A DNA stretch of 52,254 bases, taken from contig CAYVNU010000001.1 in NCBI GenBank assembly GCA_964453265.1, positions 52,022 to 104,275 on the forward strand, in the 5' to 3' direction. The position numbers and the translations under genes were made by a program. The notes below the pieces were generated by a model. That model saw nothing but the letters and a program-made list of their open reading frames with translations. It was not told the origin of the DNA and did not search any database. This document shows positions 38,218-51,654 of this stretch, piece after piece. Position 1 is the stretch's first letter. Each line of letters opens with the position of its first letter. The DNA is from an uncultured Candidatus Saccharibacteria bacterium (GTDB lineage: Bacteria > Patescibacteriota > Doudnabacteria > UBA920).

Positions 38218-39090
38218 ATGTCAGACAGAGCTTTAATTACCAGCGCTTCAAATAAATATTTTCCTTCGCTAGTTAATTTGCTTGGATCTATTAAAGCAAA
38301 TTATCCCAAGCATCCGAAAATTTATATTTACGACTTGGGGCTTTTTTGGACTTTTAGGAAAGAATTAGAATTGCTAGAGAATGTGCAAGTTGTGAAAATG
38401 CCTAAGTTTTGTGCTTTTTGGCGCAGCTGTTATACCTGGAAAACTTATATTTTTAATAATCCTTTTGCTGCTCTAAATTTTTATTTAGATGCCGGCTGCC
38501 AAGTCTTGCGTCCTCTTGATGAGATTTTTGAAAAAATTGACCAGGATGAATTATTTGTCATTGGTCAGGGTGTAAAGTTTAAAGATATTGTGCCACAAGA
38601 GTATAAGTCGGTTTTTGAACTTTCTGAGGAATATAACGACAAAGAAGCATTGCATGCCGGAGAGTTTGGTTTTAAAAATTCAGCTCTAACTAAAAGTCTT
38701 TTACAAAAAGTTTTTGATTGCGGTTTGGCCGGTTTGGCTTTAGGATTTTCTCCGGGCGACGCATGGCGCAATAAGGGTAAAGACAAAAACATTTTTGTCA
38801 GGCAGTGTAAAATTTTTAGGCACGATTTAACTCTTTTAAATATTATTTTAAGAAAATATTTTGGAAATAATTTAAATGTTCATTCTGTAGAGCAATATGC
38901 CGGAGGTTTTAAAGCACATCATAATCAGTACATTTGGCATTTGAGAATGAATTTTAAAAAGCTTGATTTTACAGCTTTAAATTTTTTACACACCGGTTTT
39001 GTCTGGCAAGCTAGGTTTAATAGGGTGGTTATTGGCGCAATGCTTTTAGTTAAAAATTTTAAAGCCATGTTAAGACAGCTTAAACAATAG
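38218..39090 (+). CDS. hypothetical protein, possibly a GT-A-type nucleotide-sugar transferase
   Basis: The LITSASNKYFPSLVNLLGSI start resembles GT8/GT77-like transferases. The match is weak. Confidence 0.35.
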   Translation: MSDRALITSASNKYFPSLVNLLGSIKANYPKHPKIYIYDLGLFWTFRKELELLENVQVVKMPKFCAFWRSCYTWKTYIFNNPFAALNFYLDAGCQVLRPLDEIFEKIDQDELFVIGQGVKFKDIVPQEYKSVFELSEEYNDKEALHAGEFGFKNSALTKSLLQKVFDCGLAGLALGFSPGDAWRNKGKDKNIFVRQCKIFRHDLTLLNIILRKYFGNNLNVHSVEQYAGGFKAHHNQYIWHLRMNFKKLDFTALNFLHTGFVWQARFNRVVIGAMLLVKNFKAMLRQLKQ

Positions 39091-39092
39091 CT

Positions 39093-39121
39093 TTGACCCT
39101 AACAGGCTATTATTGTATAGT
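39093..39121 (+). promoter_or_regulatory. candidate promoter TTGACC-17-TATAGT upstream of rfbF
   Basis: TTGACC at 39093-39098 and TATAGT at 39116-39121. Confidence 0.45.
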
Positions 39122-39154
39122 TTATAATGATTAATCTAAAATAAATAAATCCAT

Positions 39155-39946
39155 ATGAAAGTTGTTATTTTTTGCGGCGGGGAAGGTACCCGCATGAAAG
39201 AAGAGACAGAATTTAAGCCTAAGCCTTTAGTCGAGGTGGGTGGCAAGCCTATACTTTGGCACATTATGAAAATTTACGCTCATTATGGCTATAATGAATT
39301 TATATTGGCTTTAGGCTATAAAGCCAATATGATAAAAGAATATTTTTTAAATTGGCGCACTTTAGCCAATGATTTTACTTTGGAAACCAAAGAACACGAA
39401 ATTATATTTCGGACAAAAAATCACGACGATTTTAAAATAACTTTTGTGGATACCGGCTTAAAGAGTTTAACTGGCGAGCGTTTAAGAAGGCTGGAAAGTT
39501 ATATTGGCGGGGAGGATTTTATGCTTACTTACGGGGACGGTGTTGCCGATATTGATGTGAAAAAATTACACGAATTTCACAATACTCAAAATACCATAGG
39601 GACAATTACCGGCGTAAGGCCACTAACTAAATACGGCATAGTCCACCATAGTAAAGACAGTGGTAAAGTCATTGGGTTTAGTCAAAATTTAGTCGGGGAT
39701 TTTGTAGATAAAGAAAATTATCATGACTTTTTAATTAACGGCGGCTTTATGGTTTTCAAAAATGAAGTCTTTAAACTTTTAAAGCCAAATAGCATGGTAG
39801 AAGAGATTTTTATTCCTATGGCTAAAGATGGACAACTGTCTTTATATCACCATAAAGGCAAATGGAAAGCCATGGATACTTATAAAGATATGGAAGAAAT
39901 GAATAGTTATTGGCAAGAGGATCCTTTTTGGAAAGTCTGGCAGTAA
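39155..39946 (+). CDS. rfbF: glucose-1-phosphate cytidylyltransferase
   Basis: MKVVIFCGGEGTRMKEETEFKPKPLVEVGGKPILWHIMKIYAHYGYNEFILALGYK is near-canonical RfbF/DdhA. Confidence 0.9.
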   Translation: MKVVIFCGGEGTRMKEETEFKPKPLVEVGGKPILWHIMKIYAHYGYNEFILALGYKANMIKEYFLNWRTLANDFTLETKEHEIIFRTKNHDDFKITFVDTGLKSLTGERLRRLESYIGGEDFMLTYGDGVADIDVKKLHEFHNTQNTIGTITGVRPLTKYGIVHHSKDSGKVIGFSQNLVGDFVDKENYHDFLINGGFMVFKNEVFKLLKPNSMVEEIFIPMAKDGQLSLYHHKGKWKAMDTYKDMEEMNSYWQEDPFWKVWQ

Positions 39947-39992
39947 GTAATTGACAAGATTTAAAAGATTGACATAATTTAAATGATTATGG
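39947..39992. repeat. AT-rich ATTGACA repeat block (inverted relative to 40185-40235), contains a promoter-like TTGACA-16-CATAAT
   Basis: The sequence is gtaattgacaagatttaaaagattgacataatttaaatgatt. Its reverse complement shares tgtcaatcttttaaatc (17/17) with 40196-40212. TTGACA lies at 39951-39956 and CATAAT at 39973-39978. Confidence 0.55.
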
Positions 39993-40149
39993 ATTTGGAA
40001 GAAAAATACAGAATCAAATGCTAAGATCCGGAACCGGGATATACATAAATTATAGAGCGGCTTGTAGGTGTAAATCTGCTAAGGAGTTTATTTCCTAGAT
40101 GGGCACTATAATTGAGGAATCCGATGTAGCTTTAGAAACACTCCTATAA
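39989..40149 (+). pseudogene. decayed four-helix-bundle protein gene (23S rRNA intervening-sequence protein family)
   Basis: 40018-40149 reads MLRSGTGIYINYRAACRCKSAKEFIS-stop(TAG 40096)-MGTIIEESDVALETLL. This matches the central LLRSGTSIGANv.EA...sk.dFi.K..I..eE..Et..WLell core of the family. The N-terminal helix is missing or frameshifted. Confidence 0.6.
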
Positions 40150-40184
40150 AAAACCATCCGGTAAAATTGTCTTAAATTAAGTCA

Positions 40185-40235
40185 ATTATTAATCTTGTCA
40201 ATCTTTTAAATCATTTAAATCTTGTCAATCAATCT
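40185..40235. repeat. AT-rich TGTCAAT repeat block abutting ATG 40236
   Basis: aatcttgtcaatc occurs twice. 40198-40235 matches 29664-29701 at 32/38. Confidence 0.6.
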
Positions 40236-41201
40236 ATGAATCATGAATTATCTGGAAAGAACGTGTTGGTTACCGGTGGCGCCGGATTGGTAGGCTCTCA
40301 CGTGGTAGAGAAGCTTTTATCGGTTGGTGCTAAAGTTTTTGTTATGGACTTAAAAGTTCTGCCTGACAGTTATTTTGCGCGCGAGAAATTAAATGAAAAA
40401 TCAGAAATAATTATTCAGGATGTGCGCAATACGCAGGAAGTTATTAATGTAGTAAATAAAAACAACATTGCTTATATTTTTCATTTAGCCGCCCAGCCTT
40501 TAGTTGGGGAAGCTTTGTTAAGTCCGGAACTAACTTTAGATACAAATATAATGGGTACAGTCTCGGTGCTTGAGGCAGCCAGACTTTGCTTAAAGATAAA
40601 AGGCTTAATTGCAGCTTCTTCAGACAAAGCTTATGGAAAAAATTCGTATAATGTTGCAGAAGACCAGCCTATGAGCGGGGATCACCCTTACGATGTCTCA
40701 AAATCCGCGGCTGATTTGATTTGTTTTGCCTATCAGCATACCTACAATTTGCCTATAACAGTCAGCCGGTTTGGTAATATTTTTGGGCCGGGAGATTTGA
40801 ATTTCAGCCGCATTGTGCCGGGGTTTATGGATAGTTTAATAAACGCCAAAAATTTAGAAATACGCAGCGACGGCAGTTTTGTGCGCGATTATGTTTATGT
40901 TAAAGACGTAGCGGACGGTTATGTGGTTTTGGCTGAACAAATTTCCAAAGCCACGGGCCACGCCTTTAATTTTTCCAGCGGGCATAATTTTTCGGTTTTA
41001 GATTTAATTAAAAAAATGGAAGACGTTTTGCAAAAAAAAGTTGGTTATACAATTTTAAATAATCAACAGAATGAAATTCCCGCTCAAAGCTTAAATTTTC
41101 AAAAGGTTAAAGAGCAGCTTGGTTGGCAGCCCAAATATTCATTTGAAGATGGGGTAAAAGAAACTTATGAGTGGTATAAAAAACTTTTACAAAAAAGCTA
41201 A
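40236..41201 (+). CDS. extended SDR, NDP-sugar 4,6-dehydratase/epimerase (CDP-glucose 4,6-dehydratase-like)
   Basis: VLVTGGAGLVGSHV, SSDKAYG and PYDVSKSAADL (YxxxK). It sits directly after rfbF. Confidence 0.6.
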   Translation: MNHELSGKNVLVTGGAGLVGSHVVEKLLSVGAKVFVMDLKVLPDSYFAREKLNEKSEIIIQDVRNTQEVINVVNKNNIAYIFHLAAQPLVGEALLSPELTLDTNIMGTVSVLEAARLCLKIKGLIAASSDKAYGKNSYNVAEDQPMSGDHPYDVSKSAADLICFAYQHTYNLPITVSRFGNIFGPGDLNFSRIVPGFMDSLINAKNLEIRSDGSFVRDYVYVKDVADGYVVLAEQISKATGHAFNFSSGHNFSVLDLIKKMEDVLQKKVGYTILNNQQNEIPAQSLNFQKVKEQLGWQPKYSFEDGVKETYEWYKKLLQKS

Positions 41202-41227
41202 ATTATAAATAAATTAATTTTACGCTT

Positions 41228-42406
41228 ATGAAATATCGTCTAACCAAAGCCGCTAACAATTTAGAAGGCCAGCCAATGTTTAAGGTTTTGGCTCAGGTTA
41301 AAGATTTAGAAAGGCAGGGCGAGGATATTGTTCACTTTGAAATTGGGGATCCGGATTTTAACACCCCGGAAAATATTACTAATGCTGCCATAGAATCTTT
41401 AAAGCGGGGAGAAACCCATTATCAAAGTTCTTACGGTATGACTGAATTTAGAGAACTCGTCAGGGAGACGACTTTGCGCTCTCGCGGTTTTAAGCCTGAC
41501 TTAGACCAGGTACTTATTGCTCCATCTGCTAACATAATTATTTATTACGCTGTAGCATGTTTAGTCGAAGCTGGCGATGAAGTTATTGTGCCAGACCCTT
41601 GTTTTCCGACTTATACAGCAGTTTTAAAATATTTGGGAGTAAAAGCCGTGGGTGTGCCGCTTTTGGAAAAAAATCAGTTTAGAATGAACCCAAAAGACGT
41701 AGAAAGTGCCATTACCGAAAAAACCAGAATGATAATTATGAATTCTCCGCATAATCCCACAGGCGCGGTAATGACTGAGCAGGAAGTTGCGGAAATGGCA
41801 GAAATTGCGGAAAAGCATGACTTATATTTGTATACCGATGAAATTTATTCGCGCATGATTTTTGATGAGCAAAATAGTTTTTATACGCCCGCGAAAAGAG
41901 ATCAATGTAAGCAGCGCACTATTTTAGCTAACGGATTTTCAAAAGCTTATGCTATGACTGGCTGGCGTTTGGGCGTCTGCATTGCTCCGGCAGACGTAAT
42001 TGAAAAGATGGCTTTACTCCTTCAGACTACTTCTTCCTGTACTGCGCCTTTTGTTCAAAGGGCAGGCATGGAGGCAATTTCCGGCAGCCAGGATGCGGTT
42101 AACGCAATGATGGCAGAATATAAACAAAGAAGAAATTTGTTAGTCGAGGGTTTAAATAAAATACCAGGCATTTCTTGTTTAACTCCGGGTGGAGCCTTTT
42201 ACGCGGTACCGAATATTTCTAAAACCGGCATGACTTCTGAGGAATTTGCGAAATTCGCTTTGGAAAAAGCTAAAGTCGCTCTTTTGCCTTTAACCAATTT
42301 CGGCCCAAGCGGAGAAGGTTATGTGCGTTTGTGCTACGCTACTTCCCGCGAAAGGATTTTGGAAGGTTTAAGTCGTTTAGAAAAAGCATTAAAAGAAAGG
42401 AGTTAA
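41228..42406 (+). CDS. class I/II PLP-dependent aminotransferase (AspC-like)
   Basis: NSPHNPTG, YTDEIYSRM and NGFSKAYAMTGWRLG (Lys of SK) are fold-type I class I aminotransferase motifs. Confidence 0.85.
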   Translation: MKYRLTKAANNLEGQPMFKVLAQVKDLERQGEDIVHFEIGDPDFNTPENITNAAIESLKRGETHYQSSYGMTEFRELVRETTLRSRGFKPDLDQVLIAPSANIIIYYAVACLVEAGDEVIVPDPCFPTYTAVLKYLGVKAVGVPLLEKNQFRMNPKDVESAITEKTRMIIMNSPHNPTGAVMTEQEVAEMAEIAEKHDLYLYTDEIYSRMIFDEQNSFYTPAKRDQCKQRTILANGFSKAYAMTGWRLGVCIAPADVIEKMALLLQTTSSCTAPFVQRAGMEAISGSQDAVNAMMAEYKQRRNLLVEGLNKIPGISCLTPGGAFYAVPNISKTGMTSEEFAKFALEKAKVALLPLTNFGPSGEGYVRLCYATSRERILEGLSRLEKALKERS

Positions 42407-42407
42407 T

Positions 42408-44204
42408 ATGCGTGTTGCAGATTATATTACAAAATTTATTGAAGATCTTGGGGTAAAAGATATTTTTACTTTAACCGGCGGCGGTGCAATGTTTTTAAAC
42501 GACGCTGCCGCTCAAAATAAAAATATCCGCAGCGTTTTTAACCATCATGAACAATCTAGTGCCATGGCCGCGTTTGCTTACAGCAAATATACCGGTACTT
42601 GGGGTGCTACTTATGTTACAACAGGTTGCGGAGGAACTAACGCCATAACCGGTTTGCTGGATGCTTGGCAAGATAACGTTCCGGTTTTTTTCATTTCCGG
42701 CCAAGTTAAGCGCGCTGATACAATTTGGAAAATGCAGCAGCCGCTTAGGCAATATGGCGTTCAGGAGGCGGATATTATCCCGGTTGTGCAGTCTTTATGT
42801 AAGTATGCTGTTATGGTTACAGACCCGCAGCAAATTCGCTATCATTTGGAAAAAGCAGCTTATTTGGGAAGTCATGGTAGGCCCGGACCGGTTTGGCTTG
42901 ATATTCCTTCCGATGTACAAGGCGCCATAGTAAATGAAAATGAGTTAGTTGGTTTTAATCCGGAAGAATTAAAATTAGATTACACCACCGAGTGTAGTAG
43001 TCAAGATTTAAAAGAGTTGGAAGAAATGCTAAAAAAAGCCAAGCGGCCGGTAATCGTGGCCGGACATGGAGTCAGACTTTCTCACGCCATACCGGAATTT
43101 AAAAAATTTATTGAAAAATACAATATACCTTTTGTTGGGACTTATTTGGCTACAGATTTTGTGCCAGGCGATCACCCTTTGTTTATTGGCAGGACCGGCC
43201 TTAAAGGTGACAGGGCCGGTAATTTTGCTATGCAAAATTCCGATTTAATTTTATCTATTGGTAGCCGTTTGAGTGTAACAATTATTGGTTATAGTCCTAA
43301 AGATTTTGCTCGCGCGGCAAAAATTGCAGTAGTGGATATTGACCCGCATGAGCATAAGAAAAAAACTATTAACATAGATTTGTTTTTAAATGCTGATGCG
43401 AAATGGTTCTTGGAAAATTTTCAACCCCAAGACTTAAGTGATTTTAAAGAGTGGAGAGAAAAATGTTTGCACTGGAAAAATACTTATCCGGTGTGTTTGC
43501 CGGAGTATGTAAAAAGTAAAGAGGGGATTAATTTGTACCATTTTGTAGATGAACTAAATAAAGTCTTGCCTGAAAACGGGGTTGTGGTGGCGGACGCGGG
43601 TTCTGCCATTTATGTGCCTGCACAAGCCTTTAAGGCTAAAACAAATCAGAGATTAATTCTTTCCGGGGCTCAGGCAGAAATGGGTTTTACTTTGCCGGCA
43701 TGTATAGGTATAAGCGCAGCCAAAAATAAAGGGGAAGTGGTGGGTATAACCGGGGACGGCTCTTTTCAGTTAAATATTCAAGAATTGCAGGTGTTGGTCG
43801 AATATAAATTTCCGGTCAAATTATTTATTTGGAATAATGACGGTTATTTGTCCATTCGTTCGACTCAAACCAGAATTTTTGAAGGAAGGCTTTACGGCAC
43901 TGATCGAACCAACGGCGTTTCTTTGCCGGATACAAAGAAAATTGCCGAGGCCTATGGCTTGCCTTATGTTAAAATTGAAAATCCGGAAAATTTAGCAGAA
44001 AAAATTAACGAGGTTTTAAAAATGCAAGGCCCGGTAGTTTGCGAAGTTATGTGTATTCGCGACCAGGAAATTATCCCGACAGTTTCTTCAAAAAAATTGC
44101 CTGACGGACGCATGGTTTCTAAACCACTCGAAGATTTGTATCCATTTTTAGACCGCCAAATTTTTAAACAGGAAATGATTATAGAACCTTTAGCAGAGGA
44201 ATAA
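42408..44204 (+). CDS. thiamine-diphosphate-dependent enzyme, acetolactate-synthase/YerE-like
   Basis: Three-domain ALS-like layout with the ThDP motif GDGSFQLNIQELQ...WNNDGY. Confidence 0.8.
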   Translation: MRVADYITKFIEDLGVKDIFTLTGGGAMFLNDAAAQNKNIRSVFNHHEQSSAMAAFAYSKYTGTWGATYVTTGCGGTNAITGLLDAWQDNVPVFFISGQVKRADTIWKMQQPLRQYGVQEADIIPVVQSLCKYAVMVTDPQQIRYHLEKAAYLGSHGRPGPVWLDIPSDVQGAIVNENELVGFNPEELKLDYTTECSSQDLKELEEMLKKAKRPVIVAGHGVRLSHAIPEFKKFIEKYNIPFVGTYLATDFVPGDHPLFIGRTGLKGDRAGNFAMQNSDLILSIGSRLSVTIIGYSPKDFARAAKIAVVDIDPHEHKKKTINIDLFLNADAKWFLENFQPQDLSDFKEWREKCLHWKNTYPVCLPEYVKSKEGINLYHFVDELNKVLPENGVVVADAGSAIYVPAQAFKAKTNQRLILSGAQAEMGFTLPACIGISAAKNKGEVVGITGDGSFQLNIQELQVLVEYKFPVKLFIWNNDGYLSIRSTQTRIFEGRLYGTDRTNGVSLPDTKKIAEAYGLPYVKIENPENLAEKINEVLKMQGPVVCEVMCIRDQEIIPTVSSKKLPDGRMVSKPLEDLYPFLDRQIFKQEMIIEPLAEE

Positions 44205-44205
44205 T

Positions 44206-45090
44206 ATGAATATATTGCTTACCGGCGGTTTTGGGTTCATTGGCAGGCATTTGTCTTCGCACTTAGCCTCAAAATTTACTGTTTTTGCTCCGGCGCATTC
44301 GGAACTGGATGTTTTAGATTCGGCAAAAGTTTTGTCGTATGCAAAAGCTAATTCCATTGATGCAGTTGTGCACGCGGCAAATGTAGGGGGCAGCAGAAAA
44401 GATGAAAATAATTCTGAAGTATACTCCAAAAATCTACAAATGTTTTTAAACATAGCTGCGCTGGAACCTTTGGTTGGAAAAATAATTTTTTACGGTACCG
44501 GAGCTGAGTACGATAAATCAGCCAGCATTAGTATGGTTTTGGAATCAGATTTTGGAAAAAATTTGCCTAAGGACGAATACGGCAAAGCTAAGTTCGCATG
44601 TTCTCAGGAAATTGCTAAAATGCATAAAGCTATAAATTTGCGTTGCTTCGGCGTGTATGGAATTTATGAAGATTACGAACTTCGGTTTATTTCTTACGCC
44701 ATACTGCGGGCTTTGCTTGGACTGCCCATTATTTTAAAACAAGATACTCTATTTGAATATACCTATGTAAAAGATGTTTGCCGTTTAACCGAATATTTTT
44801 TAGAAAATGATGCTAAAGAAAAGTTTTATAATTTAGGCAGCGGCCGCCCGGTTAGTTTACTTTTTTTAGCCAAAATAGTTCAAAGCTTAACTAAAAGCTC
44901 TTTGCCTATAACTGTTTTAAAACCGGGTATGGGAAAAGAATATACCTGCAATTCGGATAGATTGAAGTTGGAAGTTAAAAATTTTATTTTTACCCCTTAT
45001 GAACAGGCGATACAAGAAATGATTGATTGGTATAAAGCGAATTTGAATTTATTAAATTTAGAAAAAATTAAAGCCGAAATGCCTGTATAA
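44206..45090 (+). CDS. NAD(P)-dependent sugar epimerase/reductase (extended SDR)
   Basis: MNILLTGGFGFIGRHL and YGKAKFACS (YxxxK). Confidence 0.7.
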   Translation: MNILLTGGFGFIGRHLSSHLASKFTVFAPAHSELDVLDSAKVLSYAKANSIDAVVHAANVGGSRKDENNSEVYSKNLQMFLNIAALEPLVGKIIFYGTGAEYDKSASISMVLESDFGKNLPKDEYGKAKFACSQEIAKMHKAINLRCFGVYGIYEDYELRFISYAILRALLGLPIILKQDTLFEYTYVKDVCRLTEYFLENDAKEKFYNLGSGRPVSLLFLAKIVQSLTKSSLPITVLKPGMGKEYTCNSDRLKLEVKNFIFTPYEQAIQEMIDWYKANLNLLNLEKIKAEMPV

Positions 45091-45132
45091 GGTAATTTGG
45101 TTTAAACATTAATTTTTGTTAAAATAACAAAT

Positions 45133-45285
45133 ATGCATTACATATGTACAGGTGGTTGCAAGGGTGTTAGTCAAGTGCCCGGCACCTGCCAAGCCGCAAG
45201 CTGCCCGTTAGTTGGACACGACCTTGAGCCGTGCGACTGTAAAGACGGAAAGCATTATGGCAAATTAGATCACCAGGAAAAGTAA
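45133..45285 (+). CDS. small Cys/His-rich protein (50 aa), not in the ORF track
   Basis: ATG 45133 to TAA 45285 reads MHYICTGGCKGVSQVPGTCQAASCPLVGHDLEPCDCKDGKHYGKLDHQEK, with 7 Cys and 5 His. It is locally GC-rich compared with its AT-rich flanks. Confidence 0.5.
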   Translation: MHYICTGGCKGVSQVPGTCQAASCPLVGHDLEPCDCKDGKHYGKLDHQEK

Positions 45286-45346
45286 TTAGGTTTTAAGGTG
45301 ATGTTAATTTGCAGAGCATCTAAGCAGGGTGCGTTCTTAATTTTGT

Positions 45347-46261
45347 ATGAGCGGTCAAAATCACAAAAAAACTATTTTGCTAACCGGTGCTACCGGATAT
45401 TTGGGTAGTAATCTGTTAAAAAAGCTGTTAGCAGAAGGCGAGTTTAATATAGTAGTCTTAAAAAGGTCTTTTTCCAATACTTTTAGAATTACGGATTGGT
45501 TAAGCAAGGTTCAAATTTACGACGCGGATAAAATTAATTTTGAGAGCATATTCAAGCTGCAGCAAATTGATATAATTTTACACTGCGCTACGGATTATGG
45601 CAGAAAGAACACGCCTATGCTTCAAACCATTGAAGCTAATTTACTTTTGCCTGTGCGTTTGCTGGAATTAGGCAAGCAGTACGGGGTTAAAGCTTTTATT
45701 AATACCGATACAATTTTAGACAAACGGATAAATGCTTATTCACTTTCCAAAAAACAGTTTAAAGAGTGGTTGTTTTTTTCCAAAGATTCGCTTGCCTGTA
45801 TTAATGCTTCGCTAGAACATTTTTTTGGCCCGGGCGATGACAAGACTAAATTTGCTTCTTTTATTATAAATGCGTTTTTAGTAAAACAACCGGCAATCGA
45901 TTTAACCTTAGGCGAGCAAAAAAGGGATTTTATATATATAGATGATTGCGTAAGAGCTTTCTTGGCTATTATTAGCCATGCGGCAAATTTAAATTCCGGC
46001 TTTTATGAGTTTGAAATTGGTACTAACCAGCCAATTAGTATAAAAGAATTTGTTTTGCTAATAAAAAAATTGACGGCAAGTTCTGAAACTATTTTAAATT
46101 TTGGCGCTTTGCCTTACCGGCAAAATGAAGTTATGGAATGTAAAACCGATACCGGTCCGATAAAAAAGTTAGGCTGGCAGGCAAAATATTCTTTAGAGGA
46201 AGGCTTATTAAAAACAATCACGGAAGAAAGAAAATTAATTAGCTTGACAACACAAAAATGA
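45347..46261 (+). CDS. NAD(P)-dependent sugar reductase/epimerase (extended SDR; CDP-sugar 4-reductase-like)
   Basis: ILLTGATGYLGSNLLKKLL and YSLSKKQFK (YxxxK). Confidence 0.65.
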   Translation: MSGQNHKKTILLTGATGYLGSNLLKKLLAEGEFNIVVLKRSFSNTFRITDWLSKVQIYDADKINFESIFKLQQIDIILHCATDYGRKNTPMLQTIEANLLLPVRLLELGKQYGVKAFINTDTILDKRINAYSLSKKQFKEWLFFSKDSLACINASLEHFFGPGDDKTKFASFIINAFLVKQPAIDLTLGEQKRDFIYIDDCVRAFLAIISHAANLNSGFYEFEIGTNQPISIKEFVLLIKKLTASSETILNFGALPYRQNEVMECKTDTGPIKKLGWQAKYSLEEGLLKTITEERKLISLTTQK

Positions 46262-46335
46262 ATCCCGTTAGAGTTAAAGTGATATTTAGTAATACTATTT
46301 TAGTTCTTCTTTCAGCTAAAAAATAACTATTATTT

Positions 46336-46436
46336 CCGTCGTAACTTTCGAGCCTGCCTGCCAGTACCTGTCTACCGATAGGCGGAGGCAGGAAGTGCGC
46401 CCGACCTGTCCTACGAAGTCTTGGCGAAGGGGGAAT
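46336..46436. repeat. intergenic copy of the GC-rich repeat family
   Basis: 46401-46429 ccgacctgtcctacgaagtcttggcgaag matches 5938-5966 at 27/29. Stem CCTGCCT (46353-46359) pairs with AGGCAGG (46386-46392). Confidence 0.65.
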
Positions 46437-46761
46437 CAATCTATATTTTTACTAGATCGCCCTTACCTTATATGCTATTTAAAGCTTATAATGACAATCT
46501 ATTCAATGCATTATATCGACTTGTTATAAATTTCTAAATAAGTTAATTTATAAACACGTTGTTACAAGGACTTATGAAAGCATTTTAGGCAATATTATGA
46601 AAAATTATTTTAATTAACTAAAGGTCGTGATTCGTTTATATTATTTTTATCGCGAAGCATTTTAAACAAATATGAGACTTTTGCCCGAAAACGCTACATA
46701 AAAGCGGTATGGGTAAACGCTGAATAAAGAATTGTTTAAAAAGTTTCTTAACTCTAACGGG

Positions 46762-47784
46762 ATGAAATATTTAATTACCGGGGGTGCGGGTTTTTTAGGT
46801 TCTAATTTGGCTAAAGAAGTATTAGAGAGGGGAGATGAATTGGCCATTTTTGACAACTTGTCGCGTTTGGGCGCGCAAGAGAATTTAGATTGGTTAAAAG
46901 GATTTGGTCAGTTTTTATTTACGCAAGGCAATGTGGCTAATGCGGCTGAAATTGAATCGGTTATTAAAACACAAAAACCGGATGTTATTTTTCACTTAGC
47001 CGGTCAAGTGGCAATGACAACTTCAATTTCAGACCCGAGAAAAGATTTTGAAACCAACGCGCTTGGCACTTTTAATGTTTTAAACGCTGTTCGGCAACAC
47101 TGCTTGGGTTGCGCGGTTTTGTATTCTTCAACCAACAAAGTTTATGGGGATTTAGAATATTTAAAATACAATGAAAGACCGACTCGATATGAATTGGCAG
47201 ACTTTTCGGCCGGACTTTCGGAAAATATTTCCTTAGAATTTGCTTCTCCATACGGCTGCTCAAAAGGCGCCGCTGACCAGTATTGTTTAGATTTTCATAA
47301 AACTTTTGGTTTGAAAACCGCGGTCTTTAGGCATTCTTCTATGTACGGAGGTAGGCAATTTTCCAGCTATGACCAAGGTTGGCTGGGTTGGTTTTGCGAG
47401 CAAGCAGTTTTAACCAAACAAGGCAAGTTAGAAAAACCTTTTACTATTTCCGGCAACGGCAAACAGGTACGGGATGTGCTGCACGCGGAAGATATGGTTA
47501 ATTTATATTTTTTAGCGGCCAAAGAAATTAATTCTATTGCCGGCCAGGTATTTAATATTGGCGGCGGGATGCAAAATAGTTTATCTTTGCTGGAATTGTT
47601 AAATTTTTTGGAAAAAGAATTAGATGTTAAACTTAACTATGAGCAATTGCCGCCGCGCGCTAGCGACCAAAAGGTTTTTGTGGCAGATATAGCAAAAATT
47701 CACAAGTTAATCGGCTGGCAACCAAAGGTAAGTAAAGAAGCGGGGATAAAAAAGATGTTAGAGTGGGTGAAAAGCAAAAACTAG
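46762..47784 (+). CDS. tyv: CDP-paratose (tyvelose) 2-epimerase family protein
   Basis: [108 protein letters not shown] and [10 protein letters not shown] closely track Salmonella Tyv/RfbE. ATG 46762 is preferred over the TTG at 46732. Confidence 0.88.
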
Positions 47785-47819
47785 ATTTTATAAATAATTG
47801 TTAAATTTAAAAAAATACA

Positions 47820-48524
47820 ATGAATGTAAATAAAAAGTTAACCGTATTTATCCCGGCCTATAAAGAAGCGGAAAATTTAAAAGTCCTTTTGCCAAGGCTG
47901 GTTCAGACTCTTTCGGAGGTAGAACCGGATTATGAAGTTTTAGTGGTGGATACCATGCAGCCCATGGACGCGGCCAAAGAAGTTTGTAAAAACACGGCTG
48001 GCAATATTGTTTATTTAAACAGAACAGGTGGTAATAATTTTGGCGACGCGGTTAGAACCGGAATTTATGCGGCAGCCGGGCAATTTTTTATTGCAATGGA
48101 CGGCGACGGCTCCCACGCGCCGGAATTTATAAAAAACCTTTACGCGGAAAAAGACGCAAACGATGTAGTTATTGCTTCTCGCTACGTAGAGGGCGGGGAT
48201 ACGGAGAATCCTAAAGTTCTAATTTTAATGAGTAGGATTGTCAACATTATTTATTCGCTTGTTTTGAATTTAAACTGCAAAGATGTTTCTAACAGTTTTA
48301 AACTTTACAAAACCGCTGCTTTAAAAAGTTTAAATTTGAAATGCGATAACTTTGATATTGTGGAAGAAATTTTATTTAAGCTAAAAAAAGCCAATAAAAA
48401 TTTAAAAATAAAAGAATTGCCGTTTACTTTTAAAACTAGAATGTTCGGAGAGACTAAACGGAATTTGCTGGTTTTTATAGTTACTTATATTTTTACATTG
48501 TTAAAACTTAGGTTTAGCAAATAA
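47820..48524 (+). CDS. family 2 glycosyltransferase, polyprenyl-phosphate sugar synthase (Dpm1/GtrB-like)
   Basis: LTVFIPAYKEAENL, LVVDT and AMDGDGSHAPEFI. Confidence 0.8.
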   Translation: MNVNKKLTVFIPAYKEAENLKVLLPRLVQTLSEVEPDYEVLVVDTMQPMDAAKEVCKNTAGNIVYLNRTGGNNFGDAVRTGIYAAAGQFFIAMDGDGSHAPEFIKNLYAEKDANDVVIASRYVEGGDTENPKVLILMSRIVNIIYSLVLNLNCKDVSNSFKLYKTAALKSLNLKCDNFDIVEEILFKLKKANKNLKIKELPFTFKTRMFGETKRNLLVFIVTYIFTLLKLRFSK

Positions 48525-48531
48525 GCAGATT

Positions 48532-51500
48532 ATGAAAAGAATTTTGAGTTTATGGCGTTTTTTTACGGGCAATAAATTTTTTCGTTTTTGTTTAGTCGGC
48601 TCTTCGGGGATGGTTAGCAATCTTGCGGTTTTTTTTATTTTTAGAAAATATTTTCATGCCGACATAAACACTTCAGCTATTGCGGCCTTTACTTTTGCAG
48701 TAACGCAGAATTATTATTTTAATCAAAAATGGACGTTTAAGCATTCAGCCGGTAGCGACCTGAATTTTACCGGCTATGTTAAGTATGTAGGCGTAAATAT
48801 ATTTAGCTTAAGCGTAAATTTGCTGGCAGTTAATTTTATTGTCCGTAGCGGAGTGTTTAGGCTGCCGGAATTAGTTGCCCAGGCTGTGGGAATAGTCTTA
48901 GGTTTTTTAATTACCTATTTTGGTTCTGCTTTGCTGGTCTTTGCAAAAAAAGACCAGCAAGCCGCGCTTTTGGAGAGTAAAGAAGAGGTTTTAGGAATTG
49001 AGTTTACTAAAAAAAAATTTAAAACAGCCTTAGTAGCTGAACTCAAAAGCAGTTTTAAATACTGGCTTTTTATTTTTCTAGCGGCGTTTTTGGTGATTTA
49101 TTTAGGTCAACTTGCCGCGGTTATTGGTAGTAAGAGTATTTTAAAGCCGGTAACTATTTGGGCTACAACCGAGAACGGACAAGTTCCGCCTTCTTTGGAA
49201 AGATTTATGCAGTTAGCTAGAGCTGGTAATTATACTCTGCTAAAGCCGTCCTTAAACGCGGGCAAAGAATGGACAGTTGAGGGCGTATTTTTTAAAAAAG
49301 TTTTGCTAGCTATGTCTATAGAGGATTTGGCTAAGTTAAAAAATGTCCGAGTAGAAATTGGAGAAAAAACTTTTATTTACAATAAAGAGCAGTTTTTAAA
49401 AACTTGGCAGGAAGTAAGCCCGGTAATTTTAACCGGCAATTTGTCCGGCGCGGAAACCGGCAATTATAAATTTTTTCAATCGCCCGAGGACATGCGTTTT
49501 GCTGTTTCGCGCATTCCGATTTATAAAAGTTTTTTTAGCAGTATTATTAATTGGGCAGGGGACAGCCTGTTGTTTAGAAACCCGCTTCTAAACAGTTTTG
49601 GACCGGCTTTTTTAATGCTATTTTGGTTTATTTTTATTCGTATTTGTTTGGGAGTTATGCCGCCTCAAACAATCAACGAAGCTTTGGATCAGAGGCGCCG
49701 CGGTTATATAATTTTTTCTGGGGTTGTTTATGCGGCCATAGCCGGTTTGATTTTAATAAATTTTTGTTTGTCGATTTTTTACAAGCCCAATATTGCAAGT
49801 TTGCTTAGCCAGGCAGAGAGCAGTTTTGTGCCATATATTTTTAAATCTATTAGACCCAAACCTCTGGAAAGATTGCAGTTTATGCTGAGCGCGGCTGTTT
49901 TGCCTTTTTTGCTTTTTTTCCTTCATGGCTGGTTAAAAAAAGTAAAAATAATTTCTTTGGAATTTTGGTACAAGTTATGCGCGCTGCTTAACATTTTTTT
50001 ATTAGGCTCATTAATTTATTTAGGCTTGTCGGTTAGCGGTTTTTTCTTTATTTCGGATAGCGTCTTTTCAGGGGAGTTGTTAAAATATTTTTACGCGTTT
50101 TTAGTTTTTCCGCTGTGTTTTATTTTCTTTTTAACCCGGCCTTTACCGGAAAAAATTTTAAAGCTTCTTAAGCTTTTTGGCATATTAGCGGTGTTTATTG
50201 CCTTTGCACTAAGTATTGTAAATGTGTTTGACGGCTATATGCCGGTTGATTTAGATCCAGTGCTTTTTCCAGTGGTTTCTGTTTTGGCGGGCAAAAGTTT
50301 GCTGGCGCCTATTACCAGTTTTTACGGGCTGTATCCTTTTTTTATTGCGCCGATTTTTTATGTAATTGGTTTTTCTGTCTTAAAGTTTTCTTTTGTCATG
50401 GCCGCTTTAATGCTTATAAGTTTTGCCGCTTTATACCGAGCTTTGGGTTTGCTTATAAAAAATAAAACAATTTATTTATTGGGCTTTTTGTCTTTAGTAT
50501 TTTATACGGTCTTGGCAACGCGCGTTTTGCCGGAATATTATTTCCAGTATTGGCCACTGCGTTTTGTTTTTCCCTGTTTAGGTTTTTTATGTGTTGCCGC
50601 GTATTTAAAATATGAAAATAAATTATATTATTTTTTGAGTTTTATAGTCTGCGCTTTGGCGGTGTTGTGGAATTTGGAAACCGGAGCGGTTTTGTTTATA
50701 TCTTTTTTAGTCAGTCTCTTTTTTTCCCACCTGGCTAATTGGCAGGGTATACAGAAATTTATAGCAAAGAATTTTCAGCATTTGGTTGTGAGTAGTTTAG
50801 CTTTAGGTTTGGTATTTGGACTGTTTTCGGTTATAACTAAAATTCAGAGTAGTCACTGGCCGGATTTTACTTTGCTTTTCCGCTATCAGAAATTATTTGT
50901 GGCCGGCTATTTAAATATTGCTCTGGTGCCGCCTCCGCATACTTGGGTGGTGGTGGCTGTTATTTATTTACTAGGGCTTTTGTCGGCAATTGCGGCTTTA
51001 CAAAAACAGGCTGTTAATTTTACGGACAAAGTAGTTTTCTTTTTATCTATTTTAGGTGTGGGCCTGTTTGCGTACTATGAAGGCCAATCCAGCGATATAA
51101 CTTTATTCCGCACTTCCTACCCGGCAATTGTTATTGCGATAATTTTTGCAGACAGGCTGTGGGAGGAAATAAAAAGTTTTAAAGGCAGGCTTTATGGTAA
51201 TTTTTTCGCTTTTGCTTTTATTATGTTTGTTTTAATTTCCGTACCGTTTAGTTTGCTGTATAATTTAGCTACTTATTATAGTTTTGGTAAATTGGCTATA
51301 AAAAATATCAGGCTTGAAACTTCAGAAATTTTAAGTGATGCTGAATTTATAAAAACTCAAACAAAGCCCAAAGAAGCGGTGTTTATTTTAGCCAGTCCTT
51401 TGCAGGCCGAACTTTACGCAGAAAGTAATACCGTGCCAAATTTAAACATTCCTTCGGTGGCTGATATTGTTTTTCCATCTGACTTGGAAATTTTAATTAA

Positions 51501-51654
51501 TTTTTTGCAAACCAATAAAACTGTAAAAGTTTTTGTAAAACAGCCGCTTGAGTCATACGACAAATTCGACATAAAAATAAGACAAATACTGAGCGAAAAA
51601 TACACACAAGTTTCAAAAAGTAAAAATGGTATGGTTTTTTATATCTTAAAATAA
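48532..51654 (+). CDS. GtrA-like domain fused to a very large polytopic membrane protein (probable GT-C glycosyltransferase)
   Basis: The N-terminal 130 aa (FFRFCLVGSSGMVSNLAVFFIF...QNYYFNQKWTFK) form a GtrA domain. They are followed by about 900 aa with many TM helices and a soluble C-terminal domain. Confidence 0.65.
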   Translation: MKRILSLWRFFTGNKFFRFCLVGSSGMVSNLAVFFIFRKYFHADINTSAIAAFTFAVTQNYYFNQKWTFKHSAGSDLNFTGYVKYVGVNIFSLSVNLLAVNFIVRSGVFRLPELVAQAVGIVLGFLITYFGSALLVFAKKDQQAALLESKEEVLGIEFTKKKFKTALVAELKSSFKYWLFIFLAAFLVIYLGQLAAVIGSKSILKPVTIWATTENGQVPPSLERFMQLARAGNYTLLKPSLNAGKEWTVEGVFFKKVLLAMSIEDLAKLKNVRVEIGEKTFIYNKEQFLKTWQEVSPVILTGNLSGAETGNYKFFQSPEDMRFAVSRIPIYKSFFSSIINWAGDSLLFRNPLLNSFGPAFLMLFWFIFIRICLGVMPPQTINEALDQRRRGYIIFSGVVYAAIAGLILINFCLSIFYKPNIASLLSQAESSFVPYIFKSIRPKPLERLQFMLSAAVLPFLLFFLHGWLKKVKIISLEFWYKLCALLNIFLLGSLIYLGLSVSGFFFISDSVFSGELLKYFYAFLVFPLCFIFFLTRPLPEKILKLLKLFGILAVFIAFALSIVNVFDGYMPVDLDPVLFPVVSVLAGKSLLAPITSFYGLYPFFIAPIFYVIGFSVLKFSFVMAALMLISFAALYRALGLLIKNKTIYLLGFLSLVFYTVLATRVLPEYYFQYWPLRFVFPCLGFLCVAAYLKYENKLYYFLSFIVCALAVLWNLETGAVLFISFLVSLFFSHLANWQGIQKFIAKNFQHLVVSSLALGLVFGLFSVITKIQSSHWPDFTLLFRYQKLFVAGYLNIALVPPPHTWVVVAVIYLLGLLSAIAALQKQAVNFTDKVVFFLSILGVGLFAYYEGQSSDITLFRTSYPAIVIAIIFADRLWEEIKSFKGRLYGNFFAFAFIMFVLISVPFSLLYNLATYYSFGKLAIKNIRLETSEILSDAEFIKTQTKPKEAVFILASPLQAELYAESNTVPNLNIPSVADIVFPSDLEILINFLQTNKTVKVFVKQPLESYDKFDIKIRQILSEKYTQVSKSKNGMVFYILK

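Follow-up and report, generated by a model that had tools for sequence, protein, structure and literature searches.

A Predicted JanthE/YerE-Type Pathway for a C-4-Branched CDP-Deoxyhexose in a Patescibacterial Genome

The Question Raised by the Locus

Which sugar is made by a run of CDP-hexose genes that places an enzyme dependent on thiamine diphosphate (ThDP) next to a class I aminotransferase (AT)? The question is raised by the window, that is, the whole stretch of 52,254 nucleotides analyzed here from an uncultured Candidatus Saccharibacteria bacterium of the candidate phyla radiation (CPR). It covers C1:52022-104275 (contig CAYVNU010000001.1, here C1) of a 1.17-Mb genome in 40 contigs, with a completeness of 99.97% and a GC content of ∼37%. 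The genes in question form the end of an extended co-directional glycan locus, which holds Wzy_C-TPR proteins, GDP-fucose genes, several glycosyltransferases (GTs), and a Wzx-like flippase. They encode, in order, a cytidylyltransferase (NT), a first short-chain dehydrogenase/reductase (SDR1), the AT, the ThDP enzyme, SDR2, a small Cys/His-rich open reading frame (ORF), SDR3, SDR4, a family 2 glycosyltransferase (GT2), and a 1040-aa membrane protein with a GtrA domain (table 1). Every gene listed by the original prediction, which had been made from this DNA without database searches, was recovered on the plus strand at the positions it had been given.

The region 39155-51654 is read here as a JanthE/YerE-type pathway for a C-4-branched CDP-deoxyhexose together with its delivery to the cell surface, a reading to which a probability of roughly 0.6 is given. 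The likely product is a CDP-3,6-dideoxy-4-C-(1-hydroxyalkyl)hexose with Gtr-like delivery. All chemical steps are deduced from homology and gene context. In detail, NT would make CDP-glucose, SDR1 would convert it to CDP-4-keto-6-deoxyglucose, and a DdhC/ColD-like dehydrase encoded outside the window would carry this on to CDP-4-keto-3,6-dideoxyglucose. The AT would turn an amino acid into the matching 2-oxo acid, which the ThDP enzyme would decarboxylate, adding the acyl anion to the C-4 ketone with formation of a tertiary alcohol. SDR2 would then reduce the side-chain ketone (the role of YerF), SDR3 and SDR4 would tailor the sugar, the latter by epimerization at C-2, GT2 would load it on polyprenyl phosphate, and the GtrA-fused protein would flip and transfer it.

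For comparison, the proteins of the window were mapped onto ∼150 related loci from genomes and metagenomes (L-numbers denote loci and G-numbers genomes; the locus of G052 is L208). Counts of upstream genes refer to the 131 loci with at least 1.4 kb before the ThDP gene or, for the gene preceding the AT, to the 35 AT loci with at least 2.9 kb.

The ThDP Enzyme Is a Predicted Carboligase of the JanthE/YerE Type

The three domains of the ThDP enzyme (PF02776, PF00205, and PF02775) all score over their cut-offs. Among solved structures the enzyme matches JanthE (8RPH) with 402 bits in an alignment spanning residues 2-591, PpYerE (5AHK) with 249 bits, and plant and bacterial acetohydroxyacid synthases with at most 230 bits; JanthE and PpYerE, compared by bit score only, serve here as stand-ins for YpYerE. 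JanthE is a characterized YerE-like enzyme (PMC12188165, PMC12247030) for which 2-oxo acids ranging from C3 to branched C6 serve as donors and ketones without activation as acceptors (PMC12188165). The window enzyme shares with JanthE of Janthinobacterium sp. HH01 (8RPH, 8RPI, and 8RPJ) the three-domain fold and the catalytic Glu. In detail, E48 (within HHEQ) and the residues G449-D450-G451...N476-N477 are invariant in a 12-sequence alignment that was aligned to JanthE. The two enzymes differ in the ThDP motif, which is an unusual CDG in JanthE and the canonical GDG in the window.

The ThDP enzymes of sugar clusters form a clade apart from true acetolactate synthases (ALS) with a support of 99-100%, in a tree which had true ALS from five of the same genomes as outgroup and included no YpYerE sequence. 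In this placement, no clustering with ALS was observed. The closest homologs of the window enzyme (73-84% identity) come from Patescibacteria metagenome bins, and relatives were found in more than 577 species in a scan of one genome per species. Most of these relatives adjoin rfbF, rfbG, and rfbH, and the synteny with CDP-sugar genes extends over ∼150 loci.

A reading in which the ThDP enzyme and the AT are simply amino-acid metabolism genes (an acetolactate synthase with a transaminase) that happen to lie inside a glycan locus is hardly credible in view of these data. By name, the top NCBIfam match is indeed the ALS large subunit, and JGI annotates homologs as acetolactate synthase. However, the score against that equivalog model (361.7 bits) is far under its cut-off of 538, neither an ALS small subunit nor any other ilv gene is found nearby, and both the separate clade and the CDP-sugar synteny contradict such an origin. 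The YerE-like identity claimed by the original prediction is thus upheld, and the sequence comparisons place the enzyme with the YerE/JanthE-like carboligases rather than with the ALS of the amino-acid pathway. JanthE-type is the more exact label, because PpYerE itself scores only 249 bits.

A phosphonate pathway was also considered for the combination of AT, ThDP enzyme, and NT and was rejected, as phosphoenolpyruvate mutase (TIGR02320) is absent from the genome. Phosphonopyruvate decarboxylases are not known to have a middle domain; the presence of this domain in the window enzyme counts against such an assignment.

CDP-Glucose Is the Probable Entry Point

NT gave a full-length match to TIGR02623 (254.9 bits, under the cut-off of 300.25). 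For SDR1, the best model is that of CDP-glucose 4,6-dehydratase (195 bits, under the cut-off of 278), and its PDB matches are split between epimerases and dehydratases. An Asp-Lys pair after Ser/Thr is typical of CDP-glucose 4,6-dehydratases, and SDR1 carries the motifs SSDK and YDVSK (YxxxK). It is a short form, with 27-34% identity to the RfbG-sized homologs of most loci.

The two proteins appear to act in sequence because they are joined as one in a metagenomic close relative (L106:1367-3235). This 622-aa fusion, with a linker of ∼40 aa, is 70% identical to the window protein in its NT part and 58% in its C-terminal SDR1 half. A start from CDP-hexose, as originally proposed, is supported by this arrangement.

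The Aminotransferase Is a Probable Partner of the ThDP Enzyme

The AT resembles amino-acid aminotransferases. Its best PDB matches are 1DJU/1GD9 (296 bits), and the closest solved relatives are Asp/aromatic aminotransferases of Pyrococcus and cyanobacteria. Its translation contains the motifs SKAY, NSPHNPTG, DEIY, and VRLCYA, in which we take the Lys that binds pyridoxal phosphate (PLP), the Asn, the Asp/Tyr, and the Arg that binds the alpha-carboxylate, respectively, to have the roles generally known from AspAT-type enzymes.

The gene is separated from the ThDP gene by 1 nt. In 44 of the 131 loci, from several phyla and one archaeon, the gene immediately upstream of the ThDP gene is a homolog of 40-67% identity. 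Identity to another AT of the same genome is only 28%, compared with 47-67% to the ThDP-linked ATs of other phyla and of a Methanobacteriaceae archaeon; on these identities, the AT is assigned to a dedicated lineage moving together with the ThDP gene.

The archaeal pair was found in a metagenome-assembled genome (L014:8756-11836), where the AT is 64% and the ThDP enzyme 52% identical to the window proteins. Its presence there indicates that the AT-ThDP module crosses the domain boundary.

The original prediction had the class I AT taking the place of a DegT-family enzyme. This was not borne out, since a true RfbH/DdhC lies directly upstream of the AT in 23 of the 35 AT-ThDP loci, and the AT is therefore an addition and not a replacement. 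The RfbH proteins of five of these 23 loci score 608-747 bits against the NCBIfam cut-off of 423, the E1 cysteine motif is present in all four that were aligned, and the common order is rfbF-rfbG-rfbH-AT-ThDP.

AT-linked ThDP enzymes occur in several clades of the tree, including deep-branching ones, with no fewer than 10 changes of the AT state. A large Firmicutes-rich clade of 60 rows has no AT. Within the small clade of the window itself, an AT is present in L106 and missing from L105 and L171; L104 leaves no space for one, its SDR1 gene being immediately next to the ThDP gene.

Other genes take the position beside the ThDP gene in other loci. Directly upstream, eight HMGL-like and four HpcH/HpaI aldolases were found, and directly downstream 14 HpcH/HpaI aldolases, eight PanB-like proteins, and two Ldh_2 proteins. 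For instance, the closest AT-less relative has a PanB-like gene directly downstream of the ThDP gene (L104:2227-3186), as do seven other loci, and the CPR genome G052 has an aldolase beside it. PanB-like genes in this position suggest ketopantoate-like 2-oxo acids as branch donors. As the aldolases, PanB-like, and Ldh_2 proteins found beside ThDP genes elsewhere all make 2-oxo acids, the AT most likely has the analogous task of producing the 2-oxo acid donor for the ThDP enzyme from an amino acid.

Alternatively, the AT might act after the ThDP step, converting the side-chain ketone to an amine and giving a 4-C-(1-aminoalkyl) branched sugar. The tight coupling of the two genes, here and in the 44 loci with direct adjacency, would fit this as well, and in secondary metabolites, acetyl branches can undergo further modification by transaminases (PMC9306805). 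The order of events is nonetheless improbable, given that the AT belongs to the ordinary fold-type I amino-acid aminotransferases and has the carboxylate-binding Arg, that an SDR of the side-chain-reductase type still follows the ThDP gene both in AT loci and in the window, and that the aldolases, PanB-like, and Ldh_2 proteins which take the slot elsewhere are able to act only before the ThDP step. The aminated product envisaged by the original prediction is likewise unlikely, since the AT has the hallmarks of a transaminase for alpha-amino and 2-oxo acids.

With the AT as donor supplier, a broader proposal can be made, though only tentatively. On the evidence of at least 44 loci from many bacterial phyla and one archaeon, the AT-ThDP-SDR triad could define a widespread class of branched-sugar pathways, in which the side chain of a 4-C-branched deoxyhexose would be derived from an amino acid by transamination. 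In CPR bacteria, such a pathway would run as a closed, reductase-free cycle and yield sugars not seen before. In this cycle, the Fe-S-less ColD-type dehydrase would consume glutamate, the AT would regenerate it, and the ThDP enzyme would use the resulting 2-oxo acid. The glutamate-regenerating cycle is a speculative extension of the donor-supply role. If true, the AT-coupled subfamily would offer new natural donors, namely, amino-acid-derived 2-oxo acids, and new sugars.

Is the Sugar Deoxygenated at C-3?

No DdhC or DdhD gene is found inside the window, and the DdhD-type reductase domain (PF00175) has no match in the whole genome. This part of the original prediction, that the pair is missing, holds for the window and, in the case of DdhD, genome-wide. 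It does not hold for a DdhC-like function, because a DdhC/ColD-like gene of the type with an active-site His lies 4.3 kb past the window end, on the same strand and within the same co-directional array of glycan genes (C1:108607-109830). The ddhC homolog nearby, which was to count against the original prediction, therefore exists in part, as a gene of the type without an iron-sulfur (Fe-S) cluster.

This gene is the sole DegT-family member of the genome. Its product scores 343 bits against the RfbH model (cut-off 423), 231 bits against E1 (the CDP-6-deoxy-L-threo-D-glycero-4-hexulose 3-dehydrase; 3BCX/3BB8), and 202 bits against ColD (the GDP-4-keto-6-deoxymannose 3-dehydratase; 2GMS, 3GR9), so that its similarity to the two is about equal. 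Sugar aminotransferases carry the PLP lysine at the position of E1 His220. In the protein described here this position is occupied by a His, as in ColD and E1/DdhC, and the CxC...C iron-sulfur motif is absent. ColD likewise has no E1 cysteine cluster, yet the orthologs of the present dehydrase sit in clusters for CDP-sugars and not GDP-sugars. In five CPR loci (L008, L009, L110, L113, and L019), orthologs of 59-63% identity adjoin the NT-SDR1-(AT)-ThDP genes; L113 also has an RmlC-like epimerase and a reductase after the ortholog, in an ascarylose- or colitose-like arrangement. From its sequence and the company of its orthologs, this His-type dehydrase probably removes the 3-hydroxyl group for the cluster of the window.

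A pathway with no 3-deoxygenation at all was the proposal of the original prediction: the ThDP enzyme would branch CDP-4-keto-6-deoxyglucose directly, and/or the AT would aminate it, giving a branched and/or aminated CDP-6-deoxyhexose. The lack of E1 and E3 genes in the window and of the DdhD-type domain in the genome speaks for it, as do the direct succession of SDR1 or AT and ThDP gene in L104, L105, L171, and L106 and the unlikeness of the short-form SDR1 to canonical RfbG. Still, this is an unlikely alternative and was not sustained by the wider comparison, in which most AT-ThDP loci have a true RfbH before the AT and the His-type dehydrase, near in this genome, has orthologs that abut the cluster in the five CPR loci. 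The AT, moreover, retains the alpha-carboxylate Arg and is closer to amino-acid than to sugar aminotransferases. The missing DdhD is uninformative, because nearly all related loci with E1 are also without it; an E3-like gene was detected in only one of 98 related loci by a crude regular-expression scan, which gives a lower bound, and its absence is thus not peculiar to this cluster.

The preferred reading, a 3,6-dideoxy acceptor branched at C-4, has to be held against several observations which tell in the other direction. NT and SDR1 both remain under the cut-offs of their equivalog models. The dehydrase gene lies 8.8 kb from SDR4. It comes after a sugar C-methyltransferase and shows translational coupling with a Gfo/Idh/MocA oxidoreductase; the dehydrase may therefore serve another sugar, or both. 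In addition, the genome has RmlA/RmlB-like (dTDP) and Gmd (GDP) routes able to feed the dehydrase. As the closest relatives, on short contigs (L104, L105, and L171), have NT-SDR1-ThDP with no dehydrase in between, the acceptor could be the non-3-deoxy CDP-4-keto-6-deoxyglucose. Finally, the use of a CDP-sugar by a GT2 polyprenyl-phosphate transferase is assumed.

The dehydrase belongs to a small cluster of its own at C1:106325-110731 (L004:2826-7232), composed of a C-methyltransferase (Methyltransf_13/14), the Gfo/Idh/MocA oxidoreductase, the His-type dehydrase, and a GT2. This sub-cluster may make a second, C-methylated deoxysugar.

Predicted Side-Chain Reduction, Tailoring, and Export

SDR2 stands where a side-chain reductase would be expected. 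Its homologs of 40-42% identity come immediately after the ThDP gene in L007 and L012, and in L019, L043, and L104 they are found one gene further downstream. More generally, in at least 67 of ∼125 loci the gene next after the ThDP gene encodes an SDR. Since the AT loci also keep an SDR after the ThDP gene, the AT does not replace the side-chain reductase.

SDR3 has only weak PDB matches and no detectable match to the paratose synthase model or structure. SDR4, on the other hand, aligns over its full length with TaTyvE (9RL0; 510 bits) and Salmonella Tyv (1ORR; 441 bits), and the next SDRs score at most 128 bits. The original assignment of SDR4 as a Tyv-type CDP-sugar 2-epimerase homolog is supported by these scores. 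The structure 9RL0 is that of TaTyvE from Thermodesulfatator atlanticus, which epimerizes CDP-glucose to CDP-mannose (PMC13098431). Candidate substrates of SDR4 are the branched CDP-sugar, CDP-paratose, and CDP-glucose. Its start is most likely ATG 46762 rather than TTG 46732, as homology begins at residue 11 of the ORF started from TTG.

GT2 has sub-threshold NCBIfam matches to AglJ, ArnC, PgfS, and PpgS, and homologs of 52-65% identity follow SDR4 in L055, L189, L190, and L208. In the 1040-aa protein, the GtrA domain is confined to the N-terminus and the body of ∼900 aa has no family match. Homologs of this body (26-28%) occur in the ThDP loci L018 and L137, and GT87 (GT-C) proteins hold the position of the whole protein after GT2 in L208 and L055. 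The protein is presumed to be a flippase fused to a GT-C-like transferase.

The SDR3-SDR4-GT2 triad is found, lacking the 470-bp spacer, in the Bacteroidota locus L055 and in the CPR genomes G052 and G101. In L055 and G052, it lies on the same contig as the ThDP gene, and in G101 on a separate short contig. In G052, the triad, a GT87 protein, an SDR2-like reductase, an aldolase, a DHQS-like gene, and the ThDP gene form one co-directional run. GtrA, GT2, and GT87 genes are likewise often found immediately beside the ThDP gene. The cultured Methylophilaceae isolate LSUCC0401 (L018) has the order rfbF-rfbG-rfbH-AT-ThDP-SDR-GtrA-GT2. Because the triad and the GtrA, GT2, and GT87 genes recur in ThDP loci, polyprenyl phosphate is probably the carrier on which the final sugar is loaded and flipped before its transfer outside the membrane.

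These neighborhoods also bear on the question of whether the locus holds one pathway or two. It is possible, though less favored, that NT-SDR1-AT-ThDP-SDR2 makes the branched sugar, while SDR3-SDR4-GT2 and the GtrA fusion form an independent module for an unbranched CDP-sugar (e.g., of the paratose/tyvelose type, or CDP-mannose from CDP-glucose), sharing only the CDP precursor. Such a division would be compatible with a branched product of the first five genes. The order SDR3-SDR4 would mirror rfbS-rfbE of the Salmonella rfb clusters, spacers of 256 and 470 bp lie between the two halves, and the more distant Tyv-like genes (41-49%) of the three other CPR genomes checked occur with no ThDP gene. 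The activity of TaTyvE, the best match of SDR4, on CDP-glucose (PMC13098431) would also agree with a separate module. On the contrary, the nearer SDR4 subgroup (60-62%) shares a contig with ThDP genes in L055 and G052, and G101 has both on separate short contigs. SDR3, moreover, has no detectable match to paratose synthase. A single pathway from CDP-glucose to the exported branched sugar is the preferred reading.

The Tyv-like gene is found in none of the 10 genomes of the same family that were searched, which suggests a patchy, mobile cluster.

Comparison with Described Systems

In its step logic the cluster follows the yersiniose A pathway, which proceeds from CDP-glucose by 4,6-dehydration, (3-deoxygenation), ThDP-dependent acyl addition at C-4, and side-chain reduction (PMC9306805, PMC12247030). 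It shares this logic with DdhA-D, YerE, and YerF of Yersinia pseudotuberculosis. In contrast to that pathway, the genome has no Fe-S E1 and no E3 and offers only the distant, Fe-S-less His-type E1/ColD-like enzyme, so that a canonical DdhABCD set fails at DdhC (no Fe-S type) and at DdhD (absent). The window, on its side, has an AT beside the ThDP gene and an attached module with a Tyv-like epimerase and Gtr-type export.

A nearer parallel for the AT is given by long acyl branches, which are built by a donor-forming aldolase (ErwI, MMAR_2331) together with a ThDP enzyme and a reductase (PMC9306805). The erwiniose and caryophyllose clusters (ErwE/ErwI/ErwJ/ErwF; MMAR_2331/2332) have a dedicated donor-forming enzyme beside the ThDP enzyme and reductase, as is proposed here. 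The donor slot, however, is occupied by a class I AT and not by an aldolase, both in the window and in the 44 AT-bearing loci.

With regard to export, Gtr-type systems consist of a GtrA flippase, the GT2 GtrB, and a GT-C transferase. The window has a GT2 followed by a GtrA-domain protein with a large membrane body, and related loci have GtrA with GT2 or GT2 with GT87. It departs from the Gtr type in the fusion of GtrA to a large membrane protein and in the presumed donor, a CDP-sugar instead of a UDP-sugar.

The system thus differs from those described in three respects, namely, by its AT in the donor slot, by a dehydrase without Fe-S, and by the Tyv-like/Gtr-type module attached to it. In the branched-sugar literature covered here, transamination appears as a synthetic route to donors and not as a feature of natural clusters; this coverage stops short of an in silico survey from 2024 that took in more than 200 YerE-like clusters and is known here through its citation in PMC12247030. 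The cluster is an aminotransferase-bearing variant of a known branched-sugar pathway, its novelty being subject to that survey, and its logic is the published one for acyl-branched sugars, with no new principle.

C-branched sugars made with YerE-like enzymes are uncommon surface antigens, and these catalysts are in demand for preparing chiral tertiary alcohols. In the present case, ∼12 kb of a 1.17-Mb CPR genome would be devoted to one exotic surface sugar and its Gtr-like delivery. The isolate LSUCC0401, which is culturable and carries the AT-ThDP cluster, would allow the product to be sought directly in its glycans.

Positions of the Features and Minor Elements

Table 1. Features of the region, numbered from the first nucleotide of the window
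Feature	Position	Strand	Basis or remark
Possible GT-A-like glycosyltransferase, 290 aa	38218-39090	+	Protein-atlas neighbors include glycosyltransferase-like clusters
NT, RfbF/DdhA-like glucose-1-phosphate cytidylyltransferase	39155-39946	+	TIGR02623, E 8e-76
Spacer NT/SDR1, 289 bp	39947-40235	.	Bounded by inverted AT-rich, TTGACA-rich repeat blocks
SDR1, short-form CDP-glucose 4,6-dehydratase-like, 321 aa	40236-41201	+	TIGR02622
AT, class I (AspC/ArAT-type) aminotransferase	41228-42406	+	PF00155, 224 bits
Putative ThDP carboligase, JanthE/YerE-like (C-branching)	42408-44204	+	Three TPP (thiamine pyrophosphate) domains
SDR2, RmlD-like reductase, YerF-role position	44206-45090	+	PF01370, RmlD_sub_bind
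Cys/His-rich ORF, 50 aa	45133-45285	+	Protein-atlas neighbors are clusters of 52-60-aa hypothetical proteins, commonest in Minisyncoccota
SDR3, extended SDR, first gene of the SDR3-SDR4-GT2 triad	45347-46261	+	PF01370
Spacer SDR3/SDR4, 470 bp	46262-46731	.	Dispersed repeat element in the first ∼250 bp
SDR4, CDP-tyvelose 2-epimerase homolog, 340 aa	46762-47784	+	ORF listed from TTG 46732
GT2 polyprenyl-phosphate glycosyltransferase (GtrB/ArnC/Dpm1-like)	47820-48524	+	PF00535
Membrane protein, 1040 aa, N-terminal GtrA domain	48532-51654	+	PF04138, residues 18-137 only

Two of the spacers contain repeats that are dispersed in the genome. The 289-bp spacer looks like an inserted element, because NT and SDR1 overlap or are fused in relatives; copies of ∼35-45 nt of its end blocks were found by blastn on at least eight contigs (C2, C3, C6, C7, C9, C17, C23, and C25). 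The left block holds the best sigma-70-like promoter match of the region (11/12, 39951-39978), but a promoter and terminator scan of the region gave no more matches than a shuffled control. Repeat copies of the 470-bp spacer are located on C5, C8, C23, C32, C33, and others (blastn), and SDR3 and SDR4 are contiguous, with no such spacer, in L055 and in G052. The Rfam search gave no match to the 470-bp spacer and nothing in 38500-48500 at E up to 1.

The 50-aa ORF has no Pfam or NCBIfam match and no homolog in ∼180 related ThDP loci; it probably represents a small, independent CPR gene rather than a pathway enzyme.

The 290-aa protein upstream of NT matches no Pfam family. As its homolog of 56% identity directly precedes the NT gene in L106, it may be a Leloir transferase for the CDP-sugar.

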